Shown here one piece after another: positions 899 to 18,480 of a DNA stretch of 64,000 nucleotides. The notes under the pieces are model-generated. The model searched no databases, was not told the DNA's origin, and was given only the letters and a program-made list of their open reading frames with translations. The DNA is from a virus. Taxonomy: Duplodnaviria; Caudoviricetes. The stretch is taken from IMG/VR virus record IMGVR_UViG_3300005841_000939, one strand, 5' to 3'. The position numbers and the translations under genes were made by a program. How positions within the stretch are numbered: position 1 is the first letter of the stretch; every line of letters starts with the position of its first letter.

Positions 899-1143
899 TC
901 GTTAACTTTCGTTTAGCTTTTAAAAACTTCTTGACTTGCGGCATTTCTGTGGTAAGATAAATTTTTAGGCTCGGCAAGGAAGGCAACCAAGTTTACAGAC
1001 CCATTTGCTTACTAGAATACCGCTAAGCCGTTTATTGTTATGTTCCTTTATCAATACCTTATTCATATTCATTTTCTTACTCATTTCCCTTTTACTCGTA
1101 TTGGTAATATCTTATTAGCATGTGGCATTGGATTACCGATATA

Positions 1144-1512
1144 TCATGCAACTTTATTAATTCTTTTAATACAAAGCTCTTTCATATAGATTGTTTTATT
1201 TTGGCCTTCAGTAACTAGAGTGTAGAAACATTTTGATTCTATATCTATACCTGCATGCATATTCCATAAGACAGAATCAAGGGATTCCATTTCAGAATCA
1301 CTTGTAGTGTCTATTGAAGCCTTTCTCCATAGAAATACATTTTTAATATGAAGAAAGGCTTGACTAGCTTCTATTGGTTTAGATACTAAATGTCTATCTT
1401 CTTTAGGAAAACAGAATATCACATGGAATCGTTTTCCATGAATAGTTTTATTAAAGCCTTCAATTGGTAATGAAGCATTGCGTTCAGTTGAATAGAATTG
1501 CCAATTACTCAT
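1144..1512 (-). CDS. KxxR-array protein (paralogue of 2456-2752)
   Basis: MSNWQFY...FPKEDRH...IKNVFLW. Confidence 0.8.
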   Translation of the reverse strand: MSNWQFYSTERNASLPIEGFNKTIHGKRFHVIFCFPKEDRHLVSKPIEASQAFLHIKNVFLWRKASIDTTSDSEMESLDSVLWNMHAGIDIESKCFYTLVTEGQNKTIYMKELCIKRINKVA

Positions 1513-1712
1513 AGTCTATCCTTGTCTATGCGGGATTGGATTACTGACCTATTATGTAATGAAATAGCTCTATCATTATATGCCCATATTCCTCTTGGAT
1601 CTGATTTCATCCATGACATCTGTAAGAAATCACTTTTTAATTGAGTAAGGCCTGCCAGACCGGTATGATTTAGTCTAAAATGTCTAGTTTCTTTAATTGA
1701 ATTCCTATTCAT
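1509..1712 (-). CDS. KxxR-array protein
   Basis: Motif KETRH; 4-nt overlap with next gene. Confidence 0.7.
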   Translation of the reverse strand: MNRNSIKETRHFRLNHTGLAGLTQLKSDFLQMSWMKSDPRGIWAYNDRAISLHNRSVIQSRIDKDRL

Positions 1713-2139
1713 AATACCAATCAGGATCCATGAGCGTTAACAGTTTAAATGAGAATATTCCTAAGTCCAAGAAAGAGAAGAATTTAACTAGTCGGAATAG
1801 GAGAGACTTCTTTGGTTTTGGTTGTTCAATGACACGTATACCTGTATCTCTACATGCAGCTACAAACATTGGATACGTAATGAGTGTTTTATCTATTTTA
1901 ATTCGGAATAGTTTGACAAGTACTGGATTCTCTTCTATGAGGACCTCTGTACTTGTAACTTTAGAGAGGAATTTTCTTACGAGACCGTGTACCACCCATT
2001 GTTGCAAAGCACTGGAAACATAGACATCCCTATGGGTTTGATCATGGCAATATGTTTGGCGGGTTATCATGACATCATCAAAATCATGCTGACCAGCAAT
2101 AAGAACAATTTTACCTGCAGAAGTTAATTGAGCTATCAT
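1705..2139 (-). CDS. KxxR-array protein
   Basis: Motif ITRQTY. Confidence 0.75.
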   Translation of the reverse strand: MIAQLTSAGKIVLIAGQHDFDDVMITRQTYCHDQTHRDVYVSSALQQWVVHGLVRKFLSKVTSTEVLIEENPVLVKLFRIKIDKTLITYPMFVAACRDTGIRVIEQPKPKKSLLFRLVKFFSFLDLGIFSFKLLTLMDPDWYYE

Positions 2140-2456
2140 ATTGTTGATTTACTTACTTGTATACCGTTATCTTCATAGAGAAGTGCTTGTGGATTTCTAC
2201 CTTTCTTTATTTTATGGATTTGGATAGGTGTGAGGTCTTTTATTCTAAATCCATTGTCAATAATATTTTTAACAACCATAAGTTCATGGACCGAATTTTC
2301 TCTTGTAAACATATTCGTAATTCTTTGAACCTGACAGTTGTGTGTAAGATATATGCTCTTGAGATGAGGAAATATGTTATGGATTCTGTGATTGATAGGA
2401 AAAATCCTATCTTGTCTACTAAATTTATGATCTGTATTGAACCAATCAATCTGCAT
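2136..2456 (-). CDS. KxxR-array protein
   Basis: Motif KFSRQD. Confidence 0.7.
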   Translation of the reverse strand: MQIDWFNTDHKFSRQDRIFPINHRIHNIFPHLKSIYLTHNCQVQRITNMFTRENSVHELMVVKNIIDNGFRIKDLTPIQIHKIKKGRNPQALLYEDNGIQVSKSTI

Positions 2457-2752
2457 TATTTTCTTCTTGTCCTAAAGCTTTTTATGGGATCTTCTGTACC
2501 CATTTTCATATACCATAAAGTAGCATCAAGAGTAGTCATATCATCAATGATGTCTATGTTTAACTTTAGGAATTTCCATAAGAACATTTCTTTTATATTC
2601 ATGAGAGAACCTGAGCTTTCAAGCTCACGAAAGATCGTATGTCTATCTTCTTTAGGGAAGTACGCTAACTCGCGGAAGACCTTTCCTTGAAAATTACATG
2701 TTCTTCTAAACATATACGCATGCGTACCCTCATAAAATTTCCAATTACTCAT
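2456..2752 (-). CDS. KxxR-array protein (paralogue of 1144-1512)
   Basis: MSNWKFY...FPKEDRH...IKEMFLW. Confidence 0.8.
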   Translation of the reverse strand: MSNWKFYEGTHAYMFRRTCNFQGKVFRELAYFPKEDRHTIFRELESSGSLMNIKEMFLWKFLKLNIDIIDDMTTLDATLWYMKMGTEDPIKSFRTRRK

Positions 2753-2979
2753 ATGTCATCTATTCCTGTTATGGTCGCATACTTATTAGACATAACTCCA
2801 ACATCATCACCGTAATATTCTAAGAAATCGCTATTAAACACAAGAGCTTGTTCCTCAAGAGTCCATTCAATCCCTTTACCTTTAAAGAAATGTCTTTTGC
2901 GTAATTCCAATTCATGAATAGGGTCGTAGGTAAATCTTCGTTGGCGACATTCTTTACAAAAAATTAATCGTTTATGCAT
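2749..2979 (-). CDS. KxxR-array protein (paralogue of 3239-3421)
   Basis: Motif KECRQ; IEWTLEEQA. Confidence 0.75.
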   Translation of the reverse strand: MHKRLIFCKECRQRRFTYDPIHELELRKRHFFKGKGIEWTLEEQALVFNSDFLEYYGDDVGVMSNKYATITGIDDI

Positions 2980-3089
2980 CGGAAATAATAGTGATTAAAA
3001 AGATAGAAAGGGGGTAAGTGGCATTCTGCATCGCAAATATGTATAAATACTGATTATCCGTTCATAAATTCATCTTTGCGGTCATAGAC

Positions 3090-3242
3090 TTACAACTTTG
3101 TTGGCTTTAATAATGCTGGAATGAGTGATTTATCGGCATCCCTCGTCCATAATCTGACGCAATATGAGTGTCTAAATTTTCTCCATTTTTCCATATCTGG
3201 CGGCTGAGGTTCTGTATACCTATTAATTATTAAACGTGTCAT
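3090..3242 (-). CDS. KxxR-array mini-protein, 50 aa
   Basis: Hand translation MTRLIINRYTEPQPPDMEKWRKFRHSY...; ATG overlaps upstream stop. Confidence 0.6.
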   Translation of the reverse strand: MTRLIINRYTEPQPPDMEKWRKFRHSYCVRLWTRDADKSLIPALLKPTKL

Positions 3243-3421
3243 GAGTCTTGAAATAGACCTTCAGGGATCATGGCATCACAATAAACTTTTGCTTGTTCTC
3301 GGATAGACCATTCAATGTTTCTTATGACGAAGAATTCTACTTTTAACATGTCAACATAGGCCTCAGAATAAAACATACACCTATAGTATCTTGTTTCCTT
3401 TATGAAGAGTGATCCGTTCAT
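3239..3421 (-). CDS. KxxR-array protein
   Basis: Motif KETRYY; IEWSIREQA. Confidence 0.75.
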   Translation of the reverse strand: MNGSLFIKETRYYRCMFYSEAYVDMLKVEFFVIRNIEWSIREQAKVYCDAMIPEGLFQDS

Positions 3422-3642
3422 ATATTAACTGGAGGTTGTGGGCAGAGAATGGTATTGATTCTATGTTGGTTATCAAGTAATGACTCACGCATACCTTCTT
3501 CATGTATGAACTCTTCTATAAGAATTGCTACGTCATACTCTATCCAATAAATTAGCAATTTTTTATCCGTCAATCGGTTTATTTTTTTGTCATCATATAT
3601 CATGCGTTGTGTATTCATGAATAAGACGAATTCCGTGTACAT
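3418..3642 (-). CDS. KxxR-array protein
   Basis: Motif KINRLT; NQHRI. Confidence 0.7.
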   Translation of the reverse strand: MYTEFVLFMNTQRMIYDDKKINRLTDKKLLIYWIEYDVAILIEEFIHEEGMRESLLDNQHRINTILCPQPPVNI

Positions 3643-3883
3643 CTAGGAAATTTTGGACATCAAGATTATCATACATAGTTTTTTCGGTTAATTTTAATGC
3701 TTTCACAACAAATTCTATTCCATATATAAAAAACAGAAATTCATCAGCCCTATATGTACAGTTGTATAAGCTTTTAGGATGATGATATTCAAGAGATAGA
3801 TCAGGTGATAAAAACTTACTTTTAAGTGCATTAAATCCATAGGTAACGGAATGATAGCAATATGTATGTCTATTTTCTTTCAT
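3593..3883 (-). CDS. KxxR-array protein (paralogue of 5257-5529)
   Basis: MKENRHTY...ADEFLFF. Confidence 0.8.
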   Translation of the reverse strand: MKENRHTYCYHSVTYGFNALKSKFLSPDLSLEYHHPKSLYNCTYRADEFLFFIYGIEFVVKALKLTEKTMYDNLDVQNFLDVHGIRLIHEYTTHDI

Positions 3884-4152
3884 TATTTGAATAGACCCTG
3901 AATACCATATTGATCAAGTATGCACTTTTGTTTTATATCTTTAATTCGGTATTCATTGGCTATGAATGAATTAGGGTTTAAGTTAGATGAAGGATTATCC
4001 GAGGTAATTATTAAACTATCATCTCGTTTCCAACCAAATACATATTCCTTTAATTCAACTAAAGCCATAATTTTTGACTTAAAATTGAAGGGATTTTTAT
4101 ATTGATTTTGCCTATTTATTGGAGTATTGATAAGGGTCAAAATATCTGTCAT
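3883..4152 (-). CDS. KxxR-array protein (paralogue of 4973-5260)
   Basis: PINRQ...FGWKRDDS...ANEYRI. Confidence 0.8.
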   Translation of the reverse strand: MTDILTLINTPINRQNQYKNPFNFKSKIMALVELKEYVFGWKRDDSLIITSDNPSSNLNPNSFIANEYRIKDIKQKCILDQYGIQGLFK

Positions 4153-4297
4153 ATGTTTCCATTAAAATACTTTGAATTCGCAGGTCATTTGTTCTTATAT
4201 AAATAGAAGGTTTTATTTTTAAGAAGCTTTCTCGTATTTTGCAAGTATACAATAAAAGATCCCCAGCGAAAGGATATGTATTTCTATTGACCTTAAT
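4112..4297 (-). CDS. KxxR-array member lacking ATG (ATT start or pseudogene), 61 aa
   Basis: Open frame (M)KVNRNTYPFAGDLLLYTCKIRESFLK...TNDLRI; AAGGA 7 nt upstream of ATT. Confidence 0.55.
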   Translation of the reverse strand: MKVNRNTYPFAGDLLLYTCKIRESFLKIKPSIYIRTNDLRIQSILMETYDRYFDPYQYSNK

Positions 4298-4310
4298 ACG
4301 ATATTCCTTA

Positions 4311-4562
4311 TTATTTTATTATACTATCTTTATAGTTATAAGAAGAGAATGAATTACCTAGCCAGTCAGGTTGATGGCATTCTGGTTTAAATCCCCAAAA
4401 TTCTATAAGTTGTTTATGTGTTACAACTTTGTCCCATAATGTTCTTTTGCGGCTTTTTAAATATTCTAGAACAACACGACTTTGCCAATCTTCAAAATAA
4501 TACTTCACTACTGAAGAATCGTAGGTATATCTAGTAGCTTTCATAGTGAAGCGAATCAACAT
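4311..4562 (-). CDS. KxxR-array protein
   Basis: Motif KATRYTY. Confidence 0.75.
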   Translation of the reverse strand: MLIRFTMKATRYTYDSSVVKYYFEDWQSRVVLEYLKSRKRTLWDKVVTHKQLIEFWGFKPECHQPDWLGNSFSSYNYKDSIIK

Positions 4563-4566
4563 AATT

Positions 4567-4971
4567 TTATTTTTTAGACTGGAGGCTGATATTGAAAAAC
4601 TTTTGTATATTTTCCATGTTATGATCTGAATTGTTCATGAAATTATTTAAGTCTAGCAATAAATAAGGGTCTTCTTTAATAACACTAGGACATAATTTTA
4701 TTCCGTATCCAGCCGCAACTATTGGAAAATCACGATGATTATATATGAAGTTTTCATTTACTTTTAAAATTATGCGTAATTGTTTTAGATGATTAGAAAA
4801 TTTAAGAAAAGTATTTGCCCTCTCATCACATGCATATAAAGTTTTTTCTTGTGAATAATGTATATAAAAATCTAGATCATATTTTTCAAAAAATCTTCTT
4901 TTTAATGCTGTTATAGACACTACCATATCATAAATTGAAGGAAGTTCTTCTGAATGTCTATTTATTTTCAT
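4567..4971 (-). CDS. KxxR-array protein
   Basis: MKINRHS. Confidence 0.75.
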   Translation of the reverse strand: MKINRHSEELPSIYDMVVSITALKRRFFEKYDLDFYIHYSQEKTLYACDERANTFLKFSNHLKQLRIILKVNENFIYNHRDFPIVAAGYGIKLCPSVIKEDPYLLLDLNNFMNNSDHNMENIQKFFNISLQSKK

Positions 4972-4972
4972 T

Positions 4973-5260
4973 TTAGGTCAAGTATCTAAATTTAGTTGGT
5001 GCTGACATATATTTTTCAAAATCTTCTGATTTAATAAGTTCTCTAATTCGGAATTCGTTAGAGATAAAAGATTCTGGCTTATGTGTCCTTGTTTTTGTAA
5101 TCTCATTGTAGATAAATGAATCTTTCCGTTTCCATCCAAAGTAAGATTCCTTAAGAATAATAATGCAAGTAATGCGATCCCTTGGAGCATATCTCTCTAT
5201 ATACGTGTGTCTATTCATCTTTTCTTGAATAGATTGTAGTGTGTGCATGGTTTCAATCAT
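4973..5260 (-). CDS. KxxR-array protein
   Basis: KMNRHTY...FGWKRKDS...SNEFRI. Confidence 0.8.
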   Translation of the reverse strand: MIETMHTLQSIQEKMNRHTYIERYAPRDRITCIIILKESYFGWKRKDSFIYNEITKTRTHKPESFISNEFRIRELIKSEDFEKYMSAPTKFRYLT

Positions 5261-5529
5261 GAAATTAGTTTAATATCATAACTGTTAAGACAATTAATAA
5301 CACGCTGATTAGTAAATATATCCTTATCTTTTATTCCTAGGTCTTTTTTAGCAGCATCAACCCAACGTGAGAAAAAATAGAATTCATCTGCTTTGACAGA
5401 ATACCATTGCAGACCTTTAAATACATTTAAAGATAATGGAAGGAGATTTGGTCTAAACTCCGATTTTAATGTAGTAAATCCGGTATAAACACTTAGCTTG
5501 CCTTTATATGTTTGTCTATTTTCTTTCAT
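5257..5529 (-). CDS. KxxR-array protein
   Basis: MKENRQTY...ADEFYFF. Confidence 0.8.
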   Translation of the reverse strand: MKENRQTYKGKLSVYTGFTTLKSEFRPNLLPLSLNVFKGLQWYSVKADEFYFFSRWVDAAKKDLGIKDKDIFTNQRVINCLNSYDIKLIS

Positions 5530-5536
5530 TTAATTA

Positions 5537-5779
5537 TCAGTCTTGCGCTGCATCCAAAGAATCTTTAAGGTATTGGTCTTTTCTTATTTCTAATATTCTT
5601 TTTTCATTTGCTGTAATTGATCTATCATTTGAATATATATTAGGCTCATCATAAGTTTTTGTTATGCCAAAAAATGTGTATTTAATATCTCTAAGAAAAA
5701 TAATAGGTGATCTTGGAAAATTATTTTTATATGTCTGTCTATTAAATTTTATTTTTAAAATTTTTATTGCAGGTAACAT
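5537..5779 (-). CDS. KxxR-array protein
   Basis: KFNRQTY...ANEKRI. Confidence 0.8.
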   Translation of the reverse strand: MLPAIKILKIKFNRQTYKNNFPRSPIIFLRDIKYTFFGITKTYDEPNIYSNDRSITANEKRILEIRKDQYLKDSLDAAQD

Positions 5780-5780
5780 G

Positions 5781-5975
5781 TTAATATAATACTATACTAA
5801 TATTTTCAATACGAAATCTAGGTGGAAATAAAAGTTCTCTTACTCTATCTTCATATTCAAACATCATTTTCATATTTTTATCATCTGTGTAATTTAAAAA
5901 ACGATATTTCAACATGACTATTCCAGCAAATGGAGGATTTTTAATATATGTATTCCTATTTTGTTTTATTGGCAT
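5781..5975 (-). CDS. KxxR-array protein
   Basis: KQNRNTY...YEDRV. Confidence 0.75.
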   Translation of the reverse strand: MPIKQNRNTYIKNPPFAGIVMLKYRFLNYTDDKNMKMMFEYEDRVRELLFPPRFRIENISIVLY

Positions 5976-6025
5976 AGTTATCTAATAACATCATTTTTTG
6001 ATAATGGGGGTTGTTTATAACTTTT

Positions 6026-6136
6026 CATTTTTCGGCTAGCACAATAATTAATTCTCCATGCACACCACGTATCCTTGATTAGTTTTTCATCATTATTCAT
6101 CAATTTGTATCTATTTAATTTAAAACTATTCTTCAT
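6026..6136 (-). CDS. KxxR-array mini-protein or truncated member, 36 aa
   Basis: Hand translation MKNSFKLNRYKLMNNDEKLIKDTWCAW... Confidence 0.45.
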
Positions 6137-6344
6137 ATTTAATATCTTTTATTCTTTTTTCATTAGCCATTATGGAATCTTTTTTGAGATAATATCCTTC
6201 GTCAATAATATCAAAACTATCCTCTTGCGTCATTTTAAGAAATGATTCTTTTACAGTGCAAGTATACAATTGATAATTTGTTATAAAAGGAGTTTTATAG
6301 GTATTTCTAAAAATTTTATTTTTAATATTATTAATGACTAACAT
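6126..6344 (-). CDS. KxxR-array protein
   Basis: KIFRNTY...YTCTVKESFLK...ANEKRI. Confidence 0.8.
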   Translation of the reverse strand: MLVINNIKNKIFRNTYKTPFITNYQLYTCTVKESFLKMTQEDSFDIIDEGYYLKKDSIMANEKRIKDIKYEE

Positions 6345-6561
6345 GTTTATTTTTCCAAACTATTTTATAAATTGCATAATAAATAACAACATTTTCAAGT
6401 TTCTTATCAGCTATGAATCTAAAAGCAGAAGCTTCATAGTTATAGGTAGTTCTTTTCGTAACATACTTAGAATACTCATTTGCCTTAGGAAAACTTTGTT
6501 TAATAATGACCCATTCTCTTACATCAAATTCTCTTATATATGATTGTCGTGTTTGCATCAT
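6331..6561 (-). CDS. KxxR-array protein
   Basis: MQTRQSY. Confidence 0.75.
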   Translation of the reverse strand: MMQTRQSYIREFDVREWVIIKQSFPKANEYSKYVTKRTTYNYEASAFRFIADKKLENVVIYYAIYKIVWKNKHVSH

Positions 6562-6731
6562 TATTTAAAAGTACCTGCCCAGCGTGTTATTTCAAATATA
6601 TCGTAAGGATCATGATTTGGATCAGCATAATAAGGACATAAATGTTTCGTGTAGACAAATCTAACATCTTTCCATAAGATTTCTACAAAATATGATTGCT
6701 GTCCTGAATATGTTTGTCTATTCTCTTTCAT
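6561..6731 (-). CDS. KxxR-array mini-protein, 56 aa
   Basis: Hand translation MKENRQTYSGQQSYFVEILWKDVRF... Confidence 0.7.
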   Translation of the reverse strand: MKENRQTYSGQQSYFVEILWKDVRFVYTKHLCPYYADPNHDPYDIFEITRWAGTFK

Positions 6732-6862
6732 TTTAATACTTCTATTATTTCGCTTTTCTTTCCTTGTTTATTCAATATACCTACACAAAATAAACGTCGT
6801 AGTACTTTCCACTGATGTTCGTTAAAAAATTTATAATATTCAAATCTATTGATTCTAGTCAT
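6728..6862 (-). CDS. KxxR-array mini-protein, 44 aa
   Basis: Hand translation MTRINRFEYYKFFNEHQWKVLRRLF...; ATGA overlap with next gene. Confidence 0.6.
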   Translation of the reverse strand: MTRINRFEYYKFFNEHQWKVLRRLFCVGILNKQGKKSEIIEVLK

Positions 6863-7061
6863 ATGCAAATCCCATTCTTACATCTCTAAATTCAGCTAGA
6901 ATATAAAAAATTTGTAAATCTCTATTCTGTAATTGTTTAGAAATTGTTAAATAACTTTCATCATCTTCAGCAATAAAATTGCTGAGTAAAGAAACAACAG
7001 AATAACCAATTTTCAAAGGGGTATATGAAAATGGATCATATGTTTGACGATTTATTTTCAT
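6855..7061 (-). CDS. KxxR-array protein
   Basis: MKINRQTY. Confidence 0.75.
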   Translation of the reverse strand: MKINRQTYDPFSYTPLKIGYSVVSLLSNFIAEDDESYLTISKQLQNRDLQIFYILAEFRDVRMGFAYD

Positions 7062-7288
7062 AAAGAAAAATTAGCAAATCCCACAGATGATTGCCCAATA
7101 TCTAATATTCTACGTTCAATCATGTAAATTGATAGTGGACCTTGAGTCATTGGATCCTCATCAAGTATATTACCTTTTAAAAGAAGAATATCATGAAATA
7201 CATGATAAGTATGATATTTTGATAACTGTCGGTTACATTTTCCTAAAGCTAAAAATAGAGGCATGCCATGTTTAAGTGATTGAATCAT
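7058..7288 (-). CDS. KxxR-array protein (paralogue of 7932-8156)
   Basis: HGMPLFL..KCNRQ...EDPMTQGPLSIYMIERRI. Confidence 0.8.
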   Translation of the reverse strand: MIQSLKHGMPLFLALGKCNRQLSKYHTYHVFHDILLLKGNILDEDPMTQGPLSIYMIERRILDIGQSSVGFANFSL

Positions 7289-7545
7289 TTTTTATATATA
7301 AACACATCATATTGCATGTTGTAGAACCTTTTGTCATTTGTTTCAATAAGAATTTTTCTTAATCTTACGTCACTGTTGTAGATAACATTATAGTTATCAT
7401 GGATAAGTCTAGCAGTCAAAAAATCTGAAACAACCTTAGTTGTTAATCCCAAGGTGGAAATAGTTTTTTTAACTGGAGGTCTATCTTGTCTAGTTATTTT
7501 ATCTTGCATAGGATTGTATTTAAATAATTGATTGAATGCGATCAT
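7285..7545 (-). CDS. KxxR-array protein
   Basis: KITRQD...NSDVRL. Confidence 0.75.
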   Translation of the reverse strand: MIAFNQLFKYNPMQDKITRQDRPPVKKTISTLGLTTKVVSDFLTARLIHDNYNVIYNSDVRLRKILIETNDKRFYNMQYDVFIYKK

Positions 7546-7678
7546 CGTTGAATTTCATCAAATCCCAATCTACAAATAAATTTTTATTATTTTTAAGAAA
7601 ACTATAATTCACTCCTATAATACCCATTAATTTAAAAATTGTTAATTTAGGATTATATGTATTTCTACTTATCTTCAT
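7520..7678 (-). CDS. KxxR-array mini-protein, 52 aa
   Basis: Hand translation MKISRNTYNPKL...FNDDRIQSII*. Confidence 0.7.
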   Translation of the reverse strand: MKISRNTYNPKLTIFKLMGIIGVNYSFLKNNKNLFVDWDLMKFNDDRIQSII

Positions 7679-7935
7679 GATATTATTTTAATTTTTAAAT
7701 AATCCATGTATTCAATAATATGTTGTAATTTATAGACAAAGTTTTCTGATAAACCTTGATTATCATAATAACCTTCTATAACATTTTTTAGACTAACTAA
7801 ATCTTCTAAAACGTGTTCTATCCTTACAACATCATGATATTCTACATCACTTAAATCTAGATAACATTCTTTTAAAGGAATTATGTCTGCTGGTTGTCCA
7901 ACATAAAAATTTGAATACCTAGAAATTTTATTCAT
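7675..7935 (-). CDS. KxxR-array protein
   Basis: MNKISRYS. Confidence 0.75.
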   Translation of the reverse strand: MNKISRYSNFYVGQPADIIPLKECYLDLSDVEYHDVVRIEHVLEDLVSLKNVIEGYYDNQGLSENFVYKLQHIIEYMDYLKIKIIS

Positions 7936-8156
7936 TTAAATGAATTATAGTAGGATTTATAATAGAGGTTTCCACTGATATTTGATATTCTACATTCAAT
8001 TTGATAAATTGATAGCATCCCTTGTTTATTAGGATCCTCTTTTATAAAATATCCCTTTAATACGCATATATCATTAAACAGACATGCATAGTTATATGTA
8101 TGTTCTTGTCTATTAGACTTAAACAAAAATAAAGGATTTCCATGTATGAACTGCAT
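7932..8156 (-). CDS. KxxR-array protein
   Basis: HGNPLFL.KSNRQ...EDPNKQGMLSIYQIECRI. Confidence 0.8.
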   Translation of the reverse strand: MQFIHGNPLFLFKSNRQEHTYNYACLFNDICVLKGYFIKEDPNKQGMLSIYQIECRISNISGNLYYKSYYNSFK

Positions 8157-8383
8157 TAAACTAAACCTTTAAACTCTATTCCATTATCGGAATCTTTATA
8201 CATAAAAAAGGATTTAGAATTATTCAGGAAAAGAAATTTAGTTAATATATATTTCCACTTGTTGTTTATTTGTTTAAACGAATCGGATTTATAGTTTTCT
8301 CTATATTCTTTTGTTAAAAATGCTGAAATAGATATAGATACAGGATCTATCGGGAAGTTTTCCATAATTATTTTTCTAAACAA
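8156..8383 (-). CDS. KxxR-array protein
   Basis: KEYRENY. Confidence 0.7.
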   Translation of the reverse strand: MFRKIIMENFPIDPVSISISAFLTKEYRENYKSDSFKQINNKWKYILTKFLFLNNSKSFFMYKDSDNGIEFKGLV

Positions 8384-8735
8384 AATTTAATAATTTATAA
8401 TTGTGATTTTTTAAGATTGAATATCGTGATCGTAAACCTATATTTGGTTTTATGTCTTCTTTCTTAAAAAAATTAATAATTAAATTTTGCCAGGACTCTT
8501 TGATAGTGTTTAATGCATATTCTGATTTAAAATTATTTCTATTTTCTTTATTTAATTCAATTTCATAAACAGAATTATTGAAATTAATTGGCACATATGG
8601 AGCATAAACATAACCAACATCCCAAGTATCATCAAACCTTTTTGTATATTTTAAAACATCATCTTTTAAAATATTTAATATTTCATCTTCTATTTCTTTT
8701 TTATATTTTTCAACAAGCTCATCAATATTTTTCAT
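8376..8735 (-). CDS. Mini-protein with T4 gp23-like major-capsid C-terminal motifs interrupted by a KxxR module
   Basis: EIEDEILNIL / DVGYVYAPYVPI / KPNIGLRSRYSI flank KENRNNF...TIKESW. Confidence 0.65.
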   Translation of the reverse strand: MKNIDELVEKYKKEIEDEILNILKDDVLKYTKRFDDTWDVGYVYAPYVPINFNNSVYEIELNKENRNNFKSEYALNTIKESWQNLIINFFKKEDIKPNIGLRSRYSILKNHNYKLLNFV

Positions 8736-9117
8736 TCCACCATTTTACAGGAATTTTGTTTATTTCGTTAATAAACTTTGGAGAATTCTTAAAAGTTTTG
8801 CTAATAAGATCAATATCACTCTGAACATATCTAACAAAGTGATCATATCTAAAATTATAAGTTGTAATAGGCCCAATAATCGTATCTTTTTTACCTTCTG
8901 ACCATAAACCAAAAATGTCCCATTCAATTTGTTTTGCTACCTGCATATGTTCGCTAGTCGTTTTACGATTGTATTTAATCCGTGTTGTATATTTTGCATT
9001 GCAAACATCTGCCATAACAAGTTCTTTAATATCCATCCAATAATCTACATCAAAATCGTTTTTTGAATACCTACCAATTTTTCTTCTATGTTGTAAAGTT
9101 ATAAGCGCCATTGTCAT
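8722..9117 (-). CDS. KxxR-array protein (two motif copies)
   Basis: KIGRYS and KYNRKT. Confidence 0.75.
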   Translation of the reverse strand: MTMALITLQHRRKIGRYSKNDFDVDYWMDIKELVMADVCNAKYTTRIKYNRKTTSEHMQVAKQIEWDIFGLWSEGKKDTIIGPITTYNFRYDHFVRYVQSDIDLISKTFKNSPKFINEINKIPVKWWNEKY

Positions 9118-9337
9118 ATCCTAAAAGCCATAGTTCATTGATTCTAGTATCATTTTCAACAATTGCCACAATTTGTTCTCCATTCATATCAGGATCAATA
9201 AACTCACGTTTAACATACATTAGATCCTCTAAAAATAAATGTCCGTTATAAACTGGCTTATACCTATGATTTTTAAACATGAATGTTTCTGATGGAGAAA
9301 AATCAGGAACACCAACATATTTTATGCTCAATGTCAT
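9086..9337 (-). CDS. KxxR-array protein
   Basis: KNHRY...ENDTRI. Confidence 0.75.
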   Translation of the reverse strand: MTLSIKYVGVPDFSPSETFMFKNHRYKPVYNGHLFLEDLMYVKREFIDPDMNGEQIVAIVENDTRINELWLLGYDNGAYNFTT

Positions 9338-9349
9338 ATGTTACCTATT

Positions 9350-9589
9350 TTATACATGCCAATATCTTTCATCAATTAAATCATTAAATAAACCGTACAA
9401 TCTTCTTTCATTATCATACATATCACAGAAGAGTTTACAATCCTCCAGGCCCCTTGAAATAAGAAATTTATTATTATGGTATGCCAATGTATCAATATCA
9501 TGAATACATTTAATTATTAATTGATAATCATGTCTTCCAATTTTTTCAGTCACGATGATTCCCCCATTGATCAAATAAGGCATTCTCAA
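9350..9589 (-). CDS. KxxR-array protein
   Basis: KIGRHDY...DNERRL. Confidence 0.75.
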   Translation of the reverse strand: MRMPYLINGGIIVTEKIGRHDYQLIIKCIHDIDTLAYHNNKFLISRGLEDCKLFCDMYDNERRLYGLFNDLIDERYWHV

Positions 9590-9782
9590 TTCTTGAAATA
9601 ATATTATATGGATATGGATGTGGATTAATACCTTTTTCTATTAAGAAAAAATTTCTCAATTCACGAAAATATGGTCCGTGAATGAAACGATCAATACGAT
9701 CTCCTCTATACTCTTTTGATTTAATGATAGTTCTTAAAGAGATATGAATATTTTTAGTTCTATTACCATATTGAATATTCAT
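9546..9782 (-). CDS. KxxR-array protein
   Basis: KEYRGD...IISRI. Confidence 0.7.
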   Translation of the reverse strand: MNIQYGNRTKNIHISLRTIIKSKEYRGDRIDRFIHGPYFRELRNFFLIEKGINPHPYPYNIISRIENALFDQWGNHRD

Positions 9783-9784
9783 GT

Positions 9785-9976
9785 TTAATCACGTTTAGAG
9801 AACTTTTCTACAACCTTTATTTCAAACACTCTATTTTCATAATTTCTAATAGAACGTCCTTTGATAAGAGAGTCAAAAATAGGGTGTATATTTAGGAATT
9901 CTTCTCTCAATTTACATAAATCTAGACTGAAATTGACGTTTGTGGCTAATTTATGATGTCTTGATTCTTTTTTCAT
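9785..9976 (-). CDS. KxxR-array protein
   Basis: MKKESRHH...NYENRV. Confidence 0.75.
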   Translation of the reverse strand: MKKESRHHKLATNVNFSLDLCKLREEFLNIHPIFDSLIKGRSIRNYENRVFEIKVVEKFSKRD

Positions 9977-10293
9977 CCTGAATCCCCTAGGAGAACATAA
10001 CAGTCTTCGCCCTTCATTTCTCTTATATCTATACCGTAAAATTTAATAAGTCTTAAACGACTTGTTTCCTTATATTCAAAAAACTCAATAGAATCTAGTT
10101 TTCTTATTAAAAATAATTTGACACCAATATCAATCATGACAATGCATTCTTCTCTAATATAAGGACGACTTAGACGGTTCAATTTATCGTTCATAATTAA
10201 TATGCAAAGATGTTGTATGATACATTTATTATCTTCTAAACCTATAAAAATCATACATGCGTTTATCATGTGCATGAATATATTCAGCAACAT
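9973..10293 (-). CDS. KxxR-array protein (true start probably downstream of annotated one)
   Basis: KLNRLS...KETSRL. Confidence 0.65.
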   Translation of the reverse strand: MLLNIFMHMINACMIFIGLEDNKCIIQHLCILIMNDKLNRLSRPYIREECIVMIDIGVKLFLIRKLDSIEFFEYKETSRLRLIKFYGIDIREMKGEDCYVLLGDSG

Positions 10294-10414
10294 GAATTGA
10301 TAAATTTTTATTATTTATCATTAAAAATCCAATTTTTAAATCTGAATAGACATGAAGTGAAAAATATATTGTTTCTCTTGATACATTCAGTGAATTTCTA
10401 TTAATTTTATTCAT
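10229..10414 (-). CDS. KxxR-array protein
   Basis: MNKINRNS...AHDKRM. Confidence 0.75.
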   Translation of the reverse strand: MNKINRNSLNVSRETIYFSLHVYSDLKIGFLMINNKNLSIHVAEYIHAHDKRMYDFYRFRR

Positions 10415-10925
10415 TTTTACTTCTAAACCATTGATAATCTAGGTCATAATTTGTATTAGTTGGTCCGTAAAGATCAACTGATGGTACTTCCCCCTCGTTA
10501 AATGGTTTTGTCCAAATTGGCCAAATAAATCTTTCTATATGCTCCATGTGGATTCTATCAACAAGATGCGCTGAATGCCAAACGTACTTGTCAATAAACC
10601 TCATTCTTATATCCGACCAAGTTGATGCACTAAAATAGTCAACTCTTCTAGGATTATCTGAATGTCTATCTGAAAAAGTAAACCAATAAGGTCTAATATC
10701 AAAATCGTTGTAATGTATATTGTCTATCCAGGAAGCATTATCTCTATTCTCTAATATGAATTCAATATGATGATGTCTTTTATTTCTAAAACTTTCTGAA
10801 ATAAATGTATCATAACCTATAAAAGGTTTAATACAATTCCTTAATTCATTCTCATCAATGTCTAATGTAGGTATTCCATTAATTCGGATTATACTTTCTA
10901 TTTCGTTGATCTTGTCATAAACCAT
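10407..10925 (-). CDS. Hypothetical protein in KxxR array (motif weak)
   Basis: 172-aa ORF coupled to neighbours; RNKRHH and WSDIRMRF...HMEHI resemble the family helices. Confidence 0.7.
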   Translation of the reverse strand: MVYDKINEIESIIRINGIPTLDIDENELRNCIKPFIGYDTFISESFRNKRHHHIEFILENRDNASWIDNIHYNDFDIRPYWFTFSDRHSDNPRRVDYFSASTWSDIRMRFIDKYVWHSAHLVDRIHMEHIERFIWPIWTKPFNEGEVPSVDLYGPTNTNYDLDYQWFRSKNE

Positions 10926-10983
10926 TAGGATACAATTTTACTAAGTTGATTATATTTTGAAAGAGTATTCATGTTGGTTCTAT

Positions 10984-11142
10984 TCACAACAAATAAGGAG
11001 CATGCCATCCATCAAGATGCCTAAATTCATATGAACTTTTAGAAACGTAAAGCTCATTTAGATAAGAACTTCGGCATTGGCGCCAATCACTACTAAAAGA
11101 TCCTCTAGTTTCTGTTGTATATCTGTCTATTTTAAAAAACAT
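10984..11142 (-). CDS. KxxR-array mini-protein, 52 aa
   Basis: Hand translation MFFKIDRYTTETRGSFSSDWRQCRSSYL... Confidence 0.6.
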   Translation of the reverse strand: MFFKIDRYTTETRGSFSSDWRQCRSSYLNELYVSKSSYEFRHLDGWHAPYLL

Positions 11143-11362
11143 ATTCTTTATTAGCTAATAAGTTATTATATTTGTGTACGAATGGTCCATATCTTATATC
11201 AATAACATCTATGTCCGCATATGTTATGTGATTTATTTCCTTTCCAGGATTCTCAATACTAAAAATAAAAAGTGTACGAATAATTCTCAATCCTGAACTA
11301 ATTACAATTGCATACTCATATTCTTTATATTGCCTAGTATCTTTTTTAATTTTTTTAATCAT
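11132..11362 (-). CDS. KxxR-array protein
   Basis: KDTRQY. Confidence 0.75.
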   Translation of the reverse strand: MIKKIKKDTRQYKEYEYAIVISSGLRIIRTLFIFSIENPGKEINHITYADIDVIDIRYGPFVHKYNNLLANKEYVF

Positions 11363-11561
11363 TTATTGTCTTGAAACCATCTTTTTCTAGGATCCGTATT
11401 ATTCTATCTTCACTATATCGTATGTTTGTTGGGCAATCAAGTTTTATCTCTTCTTGAGGTATTTTTAAAAATGTTTCTTTCAAATGACAATAATCAAAAG
11501 AAAACCAGGAGCGCATTTCTGTGAGAGAGGTATATCTATCAACCTTCTCATCATACATCAT
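11355..11561 (-). CDS. KxxR-array protein
   Basis: KVDRYT...LKETFL...YSEDRI. Confidence 0.75.
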   Translation of the reverse strand: MMYDEKVDRYTSLTEMRSWFSFDYCHLKETFLKIPQEEIKLDCPTNIRYSEDRIIRILEKDGFKTIND

Positions 11562-11832
11562 AAGATGATTTTATGGTTTTGATATTATAATCAAGGTATA
11601 TTTGTTTTGACCTATAATCAAAATCATCAAATAGATTTATAGGTATTTTTAGTTCAGTGCTCAAAAATCGTATACGTTCTTTAATAAACAAAAAGTCTAA
11701 TGATCGTATTTCTATGTCTTCTATATCTCTTGAATTTCCATCTTTGATAAATTGTTTTTTGATAATTTTCATATTTTCAAATATAAGAATATCTTTTGAG
11801 AAAATTACTTTTGAAAATCTATCTAATTTCAT
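11551..11832 (-). CDS. KxxR-array protein
   Basis: MKLDRFS...IKKQF...IKERI. Confidence 0.75.
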   Translation of the reverse strand: MKLDRFSKVIFSKDILIFENMKIIKKQFIKDGNSRDIEDIEIRSLDFLFIKERIRFLSTELKIPINLFDDFDYRSKQIYLDYNIKTIKSSYDV

Positions 11833-12047
11833 ACTAAAAGACTTTCAAAAAACTTTTCCATGTATCCATTAGATTTGTTGTGGAGATTAAAGAAGTTTAT
11901 TAAAAAATTGATTCTCAAAATTCTAAATTCACCTAATTCACCTAGAGGATCAATAATTATAGAAGAATACGCAGGATTCTTTTCCATACTCCAGATAATA
12001 TAACTATGACGTGTAATTTTCATTATTTTAAAAATGTCCTCATCCAT
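11829..12047 (-). CDS. KxxR-array protein
   Basis: MKITRHSY. Confidence 0.75.
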   Translation of the reverse strand: MDEDIFKIMKITRHSYIIWSMEKNPAYSSIIIDPLGELGEFRILRINFLINFFNLHNKSNGYMEKFFESLLV

Positions 12048-12238
12048 TTTGCCATAGGAATCATGTTTATATATTGCTGCATTTGATTATTAGTTTTGGG
12101 ATAAAGTGGGTAACGATTTACACAAAATGATGAGCGAACTATAAACCATTCATCCTGAGTACTAAAAGATCCCACTGAAACAAACTTTATAAATCCATCA
12201 GATAGTTTATGTTTGTTTAGTCTAGTTATTTTTTTCAA
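12023..12238 (-). CDS. KxxR-array protein
   Basis: KITRLN. Confidence 0.7.
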   Translation of the reverse strand: MKKITRLNKHKLSDGFIKFVSVGSFSTQDEWFIVRSSFCVNRYPLYPKTNNQMQQYINMIPMAKWMRTFLK

Positions 12239-12411
12239 TTTTTATCTCTTAAATTAAAACCAGAGCATTCAATTCTGAGAATGAGCTGTCTATCTCTTTC
12301 AGTGTATAATCTCAGAAAATTACATTTTATATCACGCATCACCCAAGCCAATGAATTGTTCATAAAACGACAACTATAACCCTGAAAGTTATAACGATTA
12401 ATAATTTTCAT
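12235..12411 (-). CDS. KxxR-array mini-protein, 58 aa
   Basis: Hand translation MKIINRYNFQGYSCRF...RDIKCNFL... Confidence 0.65.
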   Translation of the reverse strand: MKIINRYNFQGYSCRFMNNSLAWVMRDIKCNFLRLYTERDRQLILRIECSGFNLRDKN

Positions 12412-12661
12412 TTTTACCCAACACTTTGAATTTATGCTTCATTTCTAGTTCAAATAGAACTACATCAGGGAAATTATCATATGGATAACGTTCTGAAAAT
12501 TCTCTTAAAAAATATGTTCTACGCTCATATCCATGAATTGATACATCTTCAGACGAATATAATTTTATTTTAAAAAAATTAATCTTTATTTTGTATAAAG
12601 GCTCTGATAGTTCCCTAAAAATATCTAGTAGAGGTAAAATATTATGACGATTAATTTTCAT
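12398..12661 (-). CDS. KxxR-array protein
   Basis: MKINRHN...IKINFF...YERRT. Confidence 0.75.
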   Translation of the reverse strand: MKINRHNILPLLDIFRELSEPLYKIKINFFKIKLYSSEDVSIHGYERRTYFLREFSERYPYDNFPDVVLFELEMKHKFKVLGKNENY

Positions 12662-12845
12662 GGATTAATGTATCCTCATACCACAAAGTTATTATTTTAA
12701 TTTCATAGTTAACAAGCTCAGTTCTATATCCAATAAATTTTTTACTAAACAAAAAATCGCTTTTTATTGAGATATAAACTTCAGAGGCATCATCATAATA
12801 AATTTTTGATGTCATCGTTTCATAATCATACCGATCAGTCTTCAT
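12651..12845 (-). CDS. KxxR-array protein
   Basis: MKTDRYDY...IKSDFL...NYEIKI. Confidence 0.75.
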   Translation of the reverse strand: MKTDRYDYETMTSKIYYDDASEVYISIKSDFLFSKKFIGYRTELVNYEIKIITLWYEDTLIHEN

Positions 12846-13047
12846 TAACTAATTCTATGATTCTTCTATCTTTAACTAAAAAATCACGATTTAATTCTGA
12901 ATATCTTTTTCTATTAAAAGTCCTATTCATAATATAACATACCCTTATATCTGATATGGTATGAGTATGATGATTTATAAACCACATAGTGTTTAAATAA
13001 TTTAGATTTTCTAAATCTTGCCTAGTTATTTTTTTATGTATTACCAT
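12835..13047 (-). CDS. KxxR-array protein
   Basis: KITRQD...KDRRI. Confidence 0.75.
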   Translation of the reverse strand: MVIHKKITRQDLENLNYLNTMWFINHHTHTISDIRVCYIMNRTFNRKRYSELNRDFLVKDRRIIELVNED

Positions 13048-13333
13048 AGAAGGAAAACTGTATCATTTTCAGTTAAGGTATGTCCAATGTCTTCCAATAG
13101 CAAGTTTACAATACGTTCCTCATATTTCAATAGGATTCTTTTACCTTCATCTTCATCTGTTCCATAATGCGCCAACAAATAATCATTTCCGTAAGGATCA
13201 ACATCCCACTCATAAAAATATTTTTTATTTAATTTACGTGATGAAAATATTACTTTGATAATAACCCATAGTTCTACGTCAAAGGTATTTTTATATAGCT
13301 TACTATGATGCCTATTTGTTTTTTGTTTATCAT
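13041..13333 (-). pseudogene. Frameshifted KxxR-array member
   Basis: ATG at 13333 overlaps the upstream TGA but is out of frame with a ~95-codon open frame (KTNRHHS...KYEERIV); one extra A in the A6 run at 13319-13324 would join them. Confidence 0.6.
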
Positions 13334-13548
13334 ATAAGTTTTAACAAAGATACATCTACTTCAATTTGATTTTTTCTTGAAATTCTACGTCCCTCAACCA
13401 ATATTGAATCAATTTTCTGATGATTCAATTCCTCCTCCATAGATATATTATATTTAATAATTCTCAAAGCAGAAAGAAACGTGACTAAATTCTCCATGTT
13501 AAATGTTTTATCAGTGTTTCTATTTATTTTATAAGGACTTGCAAACAT
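13330..13548 (-). CDS. KxxR-array protein
   Basis: KINRNT...VEGRRI. Confidence 0.75.
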   Translation of the reverse strand: MFASPYKINRNTDKTFNMENLVTFLSALRIIKYNISMEEELNHQKIDSILVEGRRISRKNQIEVDVSLLKLI

Positions 13549-13772
13549 TATGCATTATCTTTAAGCATTAATTGTATTCTTCTATCGTTTTCTAATATTT
13601 CATATTTTATTTTTATATAAAAATCTGAGGAATCTAATGCCATACGCTTTTTATCAATCTTAGTGACTTTATATATGAAATCAATCCTCTTAAAAATCCA
13701 AAAAGGTTCATATTTTTGAGTTAAATATGTGTTCCTATTTATTTTATCAACAATATTGCCAGTAGGTTTCAT
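13548..13772 (-). CDS. KxxR-array protein
   Basis: KINRNTY...ENDRRI. Confidence 0.8.
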   Translation of the reverse strand: MKPTGNIVDKINRNTYLTQKYEPFWIFKRIDFIYKVTKIDKKRMALDSSDFYIKIKYEILENDRRIQLMLKDNA

Positions 13773-14005
13773 CAGTAGCCTAAGTAATAATATTTTCTTA
13801 TAATGCTAGGTTTTTCAAGTTCTTTTAATTCAAACGTTCGCTGTTCAATGATGTCTAAATTTTCAAAAGAGGTCTTAGTCCATTTAAGTTTTATCTGAAC
13901 AAGCCATTTGGCATATCGCACTTTTCTTCTATGTGACATTCCATAGTTTTGTCTATGTAATCTGGTATCAACCTCATAAAGTGGCTTCATAAATTTTCTT
14001 CGCAA
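13772..14005 (-). CDS. KxxR-array protein
   Basis: RLHRQNY...IEQRT. Confidence 0.7.
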   Translation of the reverse strand: MRRKFMKPLYEVDTRLHRQNYGMSHRRKVRYAKWLVQIKLKWTKTSFENLDIIEQRTFELKELEKPSIIRKYYYLGY

Positions 14006-14306
14006 TTAAACTTTTTAGGGCAAAATCATTGCGATTTATATTGTAAATGTAATCTGAAAATTTAATAGCTTGTTCCTTGTTGCTTATTATAGTAATGTCA
14101 CAGTGAGGATCAAGTATCCTCAGTTTTAAATGTGTCCAGTCTTCTTGAAAATCCCTTATATCATAGAGAAATTTGTTATATCTAGTTTGAGGCCAAAAAT
14201 AACGCATACCTTGTACCATTTTAACAGAATAAGCTTCAAAAGGATAATAAATGCAAATCCTAACACTTTCGCACCAGTGTTCTAAAGTAAGTTCATCACT
14301 ATACAT
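13974..14306 (-). CDS. KxxR-array protein
   Basis: PQTRYN and NINRND. Confidence 0.7.
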   Translation of the reverse strand: MYSDELTLEHWCESVRICIYYPFEAYSVKMVQGMRYFWPQTRYNKFLYDIRDFQEDWTHLKLRILDPHCDITIISNKEQAIKFSDYIYNINRNDFALKSLIAKKIYEATL

Positions 14307-14619
14307 CTAAACTCTCAACGATGAATCTTATGGATATTTCTTTTATGCGAATTGCATAATTGAGAAAATCATTGTAATCATTTTCATCTTTAATTTTTAT
14401 TGGTTCTATTACATCATCTAATTTTATTTGTAAAATAGTTATGTCTTTTAAATTAAAATATTCTTTAAATTTGTAAAGTTTTAATGCATTGAGATATTCA
14501 GCATAATCTCCACTATCATAGTTTTGATGATTTGAATGTCTTGTAAATTTATCTACTATTGGATGATATGAATTAACCATTATAAAACTCCCTATAACGC
14601 ATTTTTTCCAATACATCAT
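14299..14619 (-). CDS. KxxR-array protein
   Basis: KFTRHS...NYAIRI. Confidence 0.7.
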   Translation of the reverse strand: MMYWKKCVIGSFIMVNSYHPIVDKFTRHSNHQNYDSGDYAEYLNALKLYKFKEYFNLKDITILQIKLDDVIEPIKIKDENDYNDFLNYAIRIKEISIRFIVESLDV

Positions 14620-14833
14620 TTATGATTATTTCAGAAATATAATCATTGTAATTTTCTATATCAACTCCTTTGCTAGAAAAATATGGCAACTTTATTTCTG
14701 CTATGAGAAAATTATGAAAATTATTACCAAAATCAAATTTTAGAAACTTTATTTTTAAAGTCACATAGTCATATAAGATGTCAATCCCAGCATCATCCCC
14801 TTTTGTCTGACGATATATTTTATTCATAAACAT
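14573..14833 (-). CDS. KxxR-array protein
   Basis: KIYRQT...LKIKFL. Confidence 0.75.
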   Translation of the reverse strand: MFMNKIYRQTKGDDAGIDILYDYVTLKIKFLKFDFGNNFHNFLIAEIKLPYFSSKGVDIENYNDYISEIIINDVLEKMRYREFYNG

Positions 14834-15008
14834 CTATAGCATAATTTTCATAATTAGGATATTTTTCAATAACGAAATCATACCCTCTATATTCAATATT
14901 AAATATTGGATCAATTGGTTTTATACATAGAAAAGCACATTTATGAAATATCCATTTATGTAAATTCATATATTTAAGTTTTTTGTAACTGTTTCTGGTT
15001 TCTTTCAT
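14820..15008 (-). CDS. KxxR-array protein
   Basis: MKETRNSY. Confidence 0.75.
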   Translation of the reverse strand: MKETRNSYKKLKYMNLHKWIFHKCAFLCIKPIDPIFNIEYRGYDFVIEKYPNYENYAIDVYE

Positions 15009-15232
15009 ATGTAAAGACGATGTTTTCCAGTTCTACGCAAATAATGAACATTCAATGCATATAGTGCTTTACTATGCCAACTTCTATCGTAATGAGTTAA
15101 ATAGACGAAATATTCCTCCATTATTAAAGAGAATTGTTCATGAAATTTTTTAGCTTTAAGTACATTGAAATCGTCTCTTACTTCAACTGCACTATATACA
15201 GGAATATGGTTTTGACGGTCTATTTTTTCCAT
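15005..15232 (-). CDS. KxxR-array protein
   Basis: KIDRQN. Confidence 0.75.
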   Translation of the reverse strand: MEKIDRQNHIPVYSAVEVRDDFNVLKAKKFHEQFSLIMEEYFVYLTHYDRSWHSKALYALNVHYLRRTGKHRLYI

Positions 15233-15510
15233 AGGTAGACCTTATTTCGTATATAGGATCTTTTCCTTTTGTTTCTTTTTATTCTTTTATCATTTATCCT
15301 ATTATTATAAAATATATTTGCAACTCTAATGTCACCTGAATCACATTTATTTAAATAATAAACACAATCTTCAAGGTTTATTTTATAATCCTTGTAAAAT
15401 AACTTTGCTTTTATCCGATTAAAGCTAATTTTAATATAATCTAGGGGATAATCTATACGACTATACCTATTAACTTTTTTATTGAGGCTTTTATTTATGT
15501 TAAGCATCAA
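15220..15510 (-). CDS. KxxR-array protein
   Basis: KVNRYS...INDKRI. Confidence 0.75.
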   Translation of the reverse strand: MMLNINKSLNKKVNRYSRIDYPLDYIKISFNRIKAKLFYKDYKINLEDCVYYLNKCDSGDIRVANIFYNNRINDKRIKRNKRKRSYIRNKVYLWKK

Positions 15511-15539
15511 TACGGTATTTTATTGATGCATATAAAAAA

Positions 15540-15773
15540 TCAATCAATAACACTATGTGGAATTGATAATAGTGTTTTAGGGTCATCAATTGATATAAGA
15601 AATAAATAAAGTTTAGTCTCAGGATCATACACTCCTTGAGGATTTTTTGTAAACGAGATGAACGAATATTTATTACTTGACCAATGCTGGCTAAAAAATC
15701 TATATGATTTTAATTCGTTAATGCATGTTAATCTATTAATTTTCATATTTTTTTGTAAATTCAATGACACCAA
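15540..15773 (-). CDS. KxxR-array protein
   Basis: MKINRLT. Confidence 0.7.
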   Translation of the reverse strand: MVSLNLQKNMKINRLTCINELKSYRFFSQHWSSNKYSFISFTKNPQGVYDPETKLYLFLISIDDPKTLLSIPHSVID

Positions 15774-16911: not shown

Positions 16912-16929
16912 AAGTTTCGCAAATTAATC

Positions 16930-18478: not shown

Positions 18479-18480
18479 AA

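Follow-up and report, generated by a model that had tools for sequence, protein, structure and literature searches.

The locus described here raises the question of why a gene of 119 codons, placed inside an array of small accessory genes, should encode a piece of gp23, the major capsid protein of T4-like phages. It lies in a window of 64,000 nucleotides, the whole stretch of DNA that was analysed, and its source is a T4-like jumbo phage (~380 kb) of rhizosphere and soil metagenomes. The open reading frame, whose product is here called P0001, has exactly the translation quoted in a preliminary description made from the DNA letters. It is a genuine small protein gene and overlaps its upstream neighbour by 14 nt and its downstream neighbour by 8 nt. 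Its GC content is 20.8%, while that of the array is 28.5% versus 36% elsewhere in the window. An identical P0001 gene is present on further assemblies of this phage, which reach 379,560 bp, and these contigs therefore give no population signal on strain variation. The gene, its parts and the related genes are listed in Table 1.

Table 1. Coordinates of the P0001 gene, its segments, the surrounding array and related capsid-peptide genes. Positions are those of the window unless L086 is named; sub-profiles are numbered after T4 gp23.
Feature	Position	Strand	Correspondence or basis
Whole gene P0001	8376..8735	(-)	119 codons + stop; hairpin sub-profile T4 440-485, 31.2 bits
Residues 1-35, predicted N-terminal helix	8631..8735	(-)	AlphaFold helix 4-32; no match to spine-helix HMM
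Residues 36-51, capsid strand 1 DTWDVGYVYAPYVPIN	8583..8630	(-)	~T4 gp23 442-457; strand-1 HMM
Residues 52-95, insert with array module (KENRNNF, then IKESWQNLIINFF)	8451..8582	(-)	phmmer, alignment
Residues 96-110, candidate capsid strand 2 KPNIGLRSRYSILKN	8406..8450	(-)	~T4 gp23 468-482, gp24 370-384
Adjoining downstream gene, KE.R..YK...W..L module sub-type as in P0001	8156..8383	(-)	phmmer, alignment
Array of ~65 small genes with K-x-[NDTS]-R-x-x-Y module, P0001 gene inside	700..21900	(-)	
P0002, relative in another phage			Hairpin sub-profile T4 440-485, 23.9 bits
P0003, array paralogue just outside the window	L086 9282-9638	(+)	N-arm sub-profile T4 88-135, 16.4 bits
P0004, on the contig of P0002			N-arm sub-profile T4 88-135, 18.6 bits
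Last array gene	L086 10557-10763	(+)	Mid-region sub-profile T4 262-295, 17.4 bits

The array is a hypervariable, AT-rich region of small accessory genes with birth-and-death dynamics. Its genes abut, and most of their products contain K-x-[N/D/T/S]-R-x-x-Y with a hydrophobic helix motif behind it. The codons used for Lys and Arg in K-x-[N/D/T/S]-R-x-x-Y differ between genes (AGA, AGG, CGT, CGG, CGA), and because of this variation the conservation of the motif is ascribed to the protein level and not to a DNA repeat. The N-terminus of P0001, MKNIDELV, resembles the MSNIDELL of its paralogue P0003, with M-[K/S]-N-I-D-E-L in common. Beyond the window, convergent genes mark the end of the array: HNH, SprT-like and T4 rIIB-type genes, together with a 781-residue ORF that occupies the rIIA position, an arrangement that supports a T4-like genome organisation. 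The rIIB-family gene (Pfam PF26926) and the adjacent 781-aa ORF are located at L086:15632-18977 (-), convergent on the array end. No DNA similarity to the locus was found in cultured phages.

By sequence comparison, P0001 resembles gp23-type major capsid proteins far beyond chance. Its top Pfam family is Gp23 (PF07068; E = 2.5e-4, 21.0 bits), with residues 35-110 aligned to profile positions 310-351. A hairpin HMM was built from 75 non-identical IMG/VR homologues of gp23, of which the C-terminal part was used, and searched against 957 sequences, comprising 956 stop-to-stop frames of the window (>=30 codons) and P0002, the relative described below. It scored P0001 at 31.4 bits (E = 7.6e-9; 31.2 bits with the T4-numbered sub-profile) and P0002 at 24.5 bits, while the next best sequence reached 3.9 bits and 5000 shuffles of P0001 reached at most 10.2 bits. 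With the same HMM, the conserved motifs of the P-domain hairpin (Y-A/C-P-Y-V-P-L and G-F-K-T-R-Y-G) were recognised in P0001. Strand 1 is significant by itself (16.1 bits, E = 3e-4; strand-1 HMM, 994 ORFs). Strand 2 (residues 97-110) by itself is the top match of the window, yet at 4.8 bits it is not significant alone; within the hairpin HMM it forms HMMER domain 2 with 7.6 bits, and a pairwise BLASTP comparison with T4 gp24 367-384 gave an E value of 0.003. In a tblastn search of 50,697 phage records, eight of the 12 weak matches to P0001 fell at the same spot of major-head genes, which belong to RM378 and the Sinorhizobium phiM12 group, and BLASTP aligned residues 38-86 with residues 469-516 of the RM378 head protein.

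The preliminary description had read the gene as a miniature, non-full-length copy of the gp23 C-terminal motifs combined with an array module, and this reading is supported. The profile match to gp23-type capsid proteins on which that reading depended was obtained, below the family cut-off in Pfam and with the much lower E value given above for the hairpin HMM. The T4 gp23 motifs cited in that description are also correct, YAPYVAL being residues 450-456 and GFKTRYG residues 472-478 (NC_000866). An "EINRE-type helix" had been claimed as well, for which the spine-helix HMM (T4 288-325) gave no match.

P0001 nonetheless stands outside the Gp23 family by score, architecture and context. Its 21.0 bits, and the 17.3 bits of P0002, miss the gathering cut-off of PF07068 (24.4 bits). 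The full HK97-type body is missing, as the Gp23 positions matched are only 310-351 of 376, and a full-length gp23 HMM likewise covers P0001 only at positions 374-415 of 445. Whereas gp23 and gp24 have 430-520 residues, P0001 has 119 and lacks the A domain, the spine helix and the insertion domain; gp23 genes are located in a late structural operon, and the P0001 gene is not. The spine-helix, N-arm and mid-region gp23 HMMs had no match in the ORF. No informative family was found in PHROGs, no capsid match in PDB sequence searches with P0001 or with a P0001+P0002 profile, no longer protein resembling P0001 at E <= 10 in a word-index protein search, and no look-alike above chance in the ESM Atlas.

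In the T4 gp23 numbering of NC_000866, the region matched by P0001 corresponds to residues 444-482. This region is the P-domain beta-hairpin, of which P0001 represents strand 1 and probably the whole. Compared with this hairpin in gp23 (~444-482) and gp24 (~340-384; PF07068), strand 1 of P0001 is near the consensus W/D-x-G-x-x-Y-A-P-Y-V-P, and the candidate strand 2 retains P..IG...RY....N. The AlphaFold2 model of P0001, computed from a two-row alignment, is poor (pLDDT 45, with only helix 4-32 at ~70), and hairpin formation therefore stays a prediction.

The two strands are set much further apart in P0001 than in capsid proteins. The distance from the PY of strand 1 to the G of strand 2 is 18 residues in 81 capsid proteins including T4 gp23, 19 in the RM378 head protein and 27-28 in 10 capsid proteins including T4 gp24, compared with 52 in P0001 and 50 in P0002. 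With a spacing of 52 versus 18, P0001 would therefore carry ~33 residues at the hairpin tip that the gp23/gp24 hairpin lacks. The insert contains the module motif K-x-[NDTS]-R-x-x-[YF] and, 10-25 residues further on, an aromatic/hydrophobic helix (KENRNNF at residues 63-69, then W82, L85, F89 and F90). It had been described as a typical array module. The general array-module HMM scores the insert only at noise level (8.9 bits, E = 0.09), whereas phmmer matches it directly to array members at 701-898 (E = 1.7e-4) and 8156-8365 (E = 0.0099) and to a third below inclusion (E = 0.086). The stretch between the capsid motifs thus appears to be a weak but recognisable copy of the module. Eight proteins, P0001 and seven KETR-type paralogues or relatives, align on a K-E-T-R-x-x-Y ... 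I-x-x-T-W-x-x-L ... F core, and the module begins at residue 63 in P0001 versus within the first 15 residues in most array members. In a collinear alignment that HMMER also offers, strand 2 is replaced by the first half of the module (residues 62-75), and the spacing is nearly native. The insertion reading is favoured because the segment after the module keeps the invariant strand-2 pattern.

Descent of the module itself from gp23 was considered and rejected: hhalign of 55 modules against gp23 gave a P of 0.87, the KETR sub-family gave a P of 0.024 at the wrong place, and the strand-2 HMM reached only 2.5 bits on the ORF at 390-734. By eye, the KETRYGYSPF of that 114-aa array gene (window 390-734 (-)) recalls the KTRYGIGINPF of gp23; the N-arm and strand-2 HMMs gave at most 2.5 bits and supported no capsid reading of it. 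The 65-aa array gene at window 701-898 (-), whose module is closest to that of P0001, has an N-terminus (YIKPGIYLREFDVS) that recalls the N-terminus of contractile-sheath proteins. It is the top match of a T-even sheath N-terminal HMM, but at 2.7 bits (E = 5.4) the match is not significant. Single-sequence comparison of the array ORFs with T4 structural proteins returned noise only, and in ten array members whose N-terminal extensions are long, Pfam recognised no structural-protein family.

A phmmer search of 1.84 billion representative proteins returned a single relative of P0001, the 73-aa protein P0002 (E = 6e-4, 33-34% identity overall), which is encoded on a 677-bp ENA contig of another phage (38.6% GC). 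P0002 independently matches Pfam Gp23, at profile positions 307-329. The two proteins are identical at 10 of 16 residues in strand 1 and at 8 of 41 in the insert, and all three Pro and both Gly residues of P0001 stand at invariant P/G positions of the capsid motifs. Scans of IMG/VR and JGI contigs with P0001+P0002 patterns, and of cultured phages, found no relative, and a word-index search for near relatives returned only the P0001 protein.

The window, the contig of the relative and the flank beyond the window start were also searched with a full-length gp23 profile and T4-numbered sub-profiles, which matched only small genes of the array type. As judged from these matches, at least three genes of the array, that of P0001 included, encode conserved gp23 peptides, and the peptide differs from gene to gene. 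P0003, a 118-aa paralogue with the module, is encoded ~520 to 160 bases before window position 1 and carries the N-arm/Gol-region peptide of gp23 (T4 88-117). Its tblastn matches in cultured phages are, for the best 40 of 70 matching records, all head genes except for one unannotated record. The C-terminal LNYVYGK of P0003 resembles T4 LRAVYGK (126-132) by eye; the HMM reports no second domain. The last array gene, situated past the window start, encodes 68 aa, the first 27 of which resemble T4 262-288 in the region of the short acidic P-domain helix, and a module-like NNRYDH ... ISDIVRDFL follows the capsid peptide. Gp23 is the top Pfam family for P0001, P0002, P0004 and the last array gene, the match of P0004 being at profile positions 2-32 (E = 3.4e-4) and that of the last array gene, a weak one, at positions 148-170 (E = 0.12).

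On the contig of the relative (L003:93-628), the N-arm gene P0004 (105 aa) directly adjoins the hairpin gene P0002 (73 aa), the overlap being ATGA, while the two gene types are ~9 kb apart in the phage of P0001. The earlier hint that the module can be grafted onto different capsid pieces is thus substantiated by the N-arm peptides of P0003 and P0004 and by the T4 262-295 peptide of the last array gene. A profile of the N-arm pair found only P0003 and P0004 in a word-index protein search, and the corresponding scan of IMG/VR returned only full-length capsid genes.

The array also differs from the structural genes in its expression signals. No T4-type late box (TATAAATA) was found on the minus (coding) strand of positions 1-23000, which include the ~22-kb array, whereas late boxes at 39098, 47465 and 56857 (-) directly precede structural operons. 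The total number of late boxes in the window is not above chance, but their placement is. These boxes (39098-39105, 47441-47472 and 56857-56864 (-)) lie immediately upstream of large ORF starts at 39080, 47462 and 56837; on the (+) strand, late boxes occur at 57806, 60534 and 61032. The gap that precedes the first array genes contains an extended -10 element (TGGTATAAT, 23178-23186 (-)), a candidate promoter of the host (early) type from which the array could be transcribed. The absence of late boxes from the coding strand and the extended -10 at the array head suggest early or middle transcription of the array, and early expression of P0001 is plausible. Around the P0001 gene itself, a sigma-70 and terminator scan found fewer promoter-like sites than in shuffles.

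We tentatively propose, with a probability of about 0.4, that P0001 mimics the capsid protein without assembling and competes for a partner by which the hairpin is recognised, most likely a host sensor towards which it would act as a non-activating decoy. The protein combines a helical N-terminus, the first and probably both strands of the gp23/gp24 hairpin and ~33 extra residues with the array module, which on the favoured alignment takes the position of the capsid P loop. Its synthesis would precede that of the late structural proteins or be independent of it. It would present the invariant capsid hairpin in a form unable to join the lattice, and could compete with the real capsid protein for whatever recognises this hairpin. 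The most likely partner would be a host immune sensor of capsid protein; the module may supply fold or solubility, and may block activation or polymerisation.

The decoy reading is ranked first because the hypervariable, AT-rich small-gene arrays of T4-like phages typically hold arms-race genes, and because capsid proteins are common immune triggers. The frequency with which capsid proteins trigger bacterial immunity has been documented (PMC9712102, PMC13728456). Against a decoy, a trigger epitope displayed on it could itself set off an abortive system, and two members in 1.84 billion proteins are thin for a generally useful counter-defence. It also counts against the decoy that we know of no sensor of the P-domain hairpin. 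Poxvirus K3L, which mimics eIF2alpha against PKR, and phage mimics of the Ocr type share with P0001 the proposed logic only, namely that a small viral protein copies a recognised surface and competes for a host factor; they copy host proteins or DNA, whereas P0001 would copy the phage's own capsid protein.

The preliminary description had drawn an analogy with the sensing of gp23 by Lit through the Gol peptide. Gol comprises 29 residues within the first quarter of gp23 (PMC3014915), and since P0001 copies T4 444-482, at the opposite end of the protein, the Lit/Gol analogy does not fit this gene. What Gol, the Lit protease and EF-Tu (PMC3014915) share with the proposed decoy is that a short, highly conserved capsid peptide could be what a host factor recognises. 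Gol differs, however, in being part of gp23 and not a separate gene, and the Gol-equivalent peptide is found in another array gene, P0003.

Taken over the whole array, the genes could form a capsid-peptide display panel, in which one module of ~33 residues is shared and each protein presents one invariant piece of gp23, be it the N-arm/Gol region, the short P-domain helix region or the P-domain hairpin, blinding host sensors adapted to the immutable parts of the capsid protein or controlling capsomer contacts and head geometry; this wider reading is possible, although we lean against it. No family of stand-alone capsid-peptide genes was found in Pfam, PHROGs or PDB, and a literature search found no paper on them. 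No capsid-hairpin mimic gene has been described. The most conserved capsid peptides are those that the phage cannot change. If capsid mimicry by P0001 is true, it would amount to a new counter-defence principle, self-mimicry of the trigger, or to a new way of steering the assembly of a very large head. The copied peptides also provide a short, testable list of capsid epitopes (the hairpin T4 444-482, the N-arm 88-135 and the helix region 262-295), and the module is portable and could serve for peptide display.

Control of capsid assembly could also account for the choice of peptides. In T4, the P loop is the tip of the P-domain hairpin, and it is through these loops that three adjacent capsomers meet at the quasi-threefold axes (PMC9546572). 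Residues 457, 460 and 461 shape this loop, through which T457A, R460C and G461S alter head length, and these form one of the clusters of head-length mutations, alongside A66D/A94V/G97S and A268V to D287N (PMC9546572). The peptides copied by the three types of array gene (T4 88-135, 262-295 and 440-485) coincide with the three clusters, and also with inter-capsomer contact elements, namely the P loops and a short acidic helix that faces the basic P-domain strand (PMC9546572). P0001 could accordingly be read as a modulator or poison of capsid assembly, with the hairpin copy docking on capsid subunits at the inter-capsomer quasi-threefold interface, where it would tune or delay the phage's own very large head or sabotage the heads of a co-infecting T4-like phage; that the P loop itself is replaced on the favoured alignment would suit such a role. 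We regard this as unlikely. The morphogenetic genes of T4-like phages are located in conserved late operons, whereas P0001 belongs to a hypervariable array without late boxes. The coincidence with the mutation clusters may moreover be trivial, because the copied peptides are simply the best-conserved parts of gp23, and a poison directed at invariant peptides would not spare the capsid protein of the phage itself. P4 Sid and SaPI CpmB are small satellite proteins that act on capsid contacts and change head geometry. They match an assembly modulator in this respect, but they are not copies of capsid sequence, and they are encoded by satellites and not by the phage itself.

A less probable explanation still is evolutionary debris, in which a gp23/gp24 fragment was captured by illegitimate recombination into a fast-duplicating array gene and has no capsid-related function. 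The birth-and-death dynamics of the array, the tiny family and the poor fold prediction are consistent with this, and T4 keeps partial duplicates of a virion gene, alt, as the small ORFs alt.-1 and alt.-2 (NC_000866). Like the P0001 gene, the latter are small and stem from a portion of a gene for a virion protein; they adjoin their parent gene, however, and read as decayed duplicates, whereas in P0001 the capsid piece is joined to a module of the array family and has a conserved counterpart in a second phage. Further points weigh against debris. P0001 and P0002 are only 33% identical, and no part of them is better conserved than the capsid strand; in a gene of 21% GC, moreover, the invariant Pro and Gly residues have retained their GC-rich codons. 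From both facts, selection on the capsid-like residues can be argued. Three different capsid peptides recur in sibling genes, and N-arm and hairpin genes occur together in the second phage. If the P0001 gene were debris after all, it would show how parts of essential genes are recruited into the hyperplastic regions of jumbo phages.

The hairpin might instead be the element that makes gp23 folding dependent on GroEL and the phage co-chaperonin, in which case the mini-protein would engage or titrate this machinery. The copied strand (YAPYVAL, T4 450-456) includes the site of the gp31-bypass mutation A455V, A455 being located in the P-domain sheet, and other bypass residues are in the P domain (PMC9546572). 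This reasoning is purely positional, and recognition by GroEL is not known to be sequence-specific for the copied strand; we judge such a role to be highly improbable. Chance resemblance in an AT-rich, low-complexity ORF, for which the Pfam score under the gathering cut-off and the empty searches of PDB and of longer proteins might speak, is effectively refuted by the margin of the hairpin HMM over the other window frames and the shuffles, by the independent match of P0002 to Gp23 at the same profile position and by a motif that is not of low complexity.

Several other genes of the window deserve mention. Between the array and the structural genes, a 560-aa protein (window 23214-24896 (-)) has a weak match to a protein-kinase domain that falls short of the Pfam cut-off, and 42742-44415 (-) encodes an AAA ATPase of 557 aa. 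A 467-aa protein at 41008-42411 (-) combines a WGR domain with the regulatory and catalytic domains of PARP (Pfam E = 1e-27), and its distant relatives are found in jumbo phages of Xanthomonas, Stenotrophomonas, Klebsiella and Cellulophaga. Nucleotide metabolism is represented by an IMPDH/GMP-reductase-type gene at 36225-37178 (-) (Pfam E = 4e-55) and by a thymidylate-kinase-type gene at 57140-57727 (-) (PHROG E = 1.5e-18).
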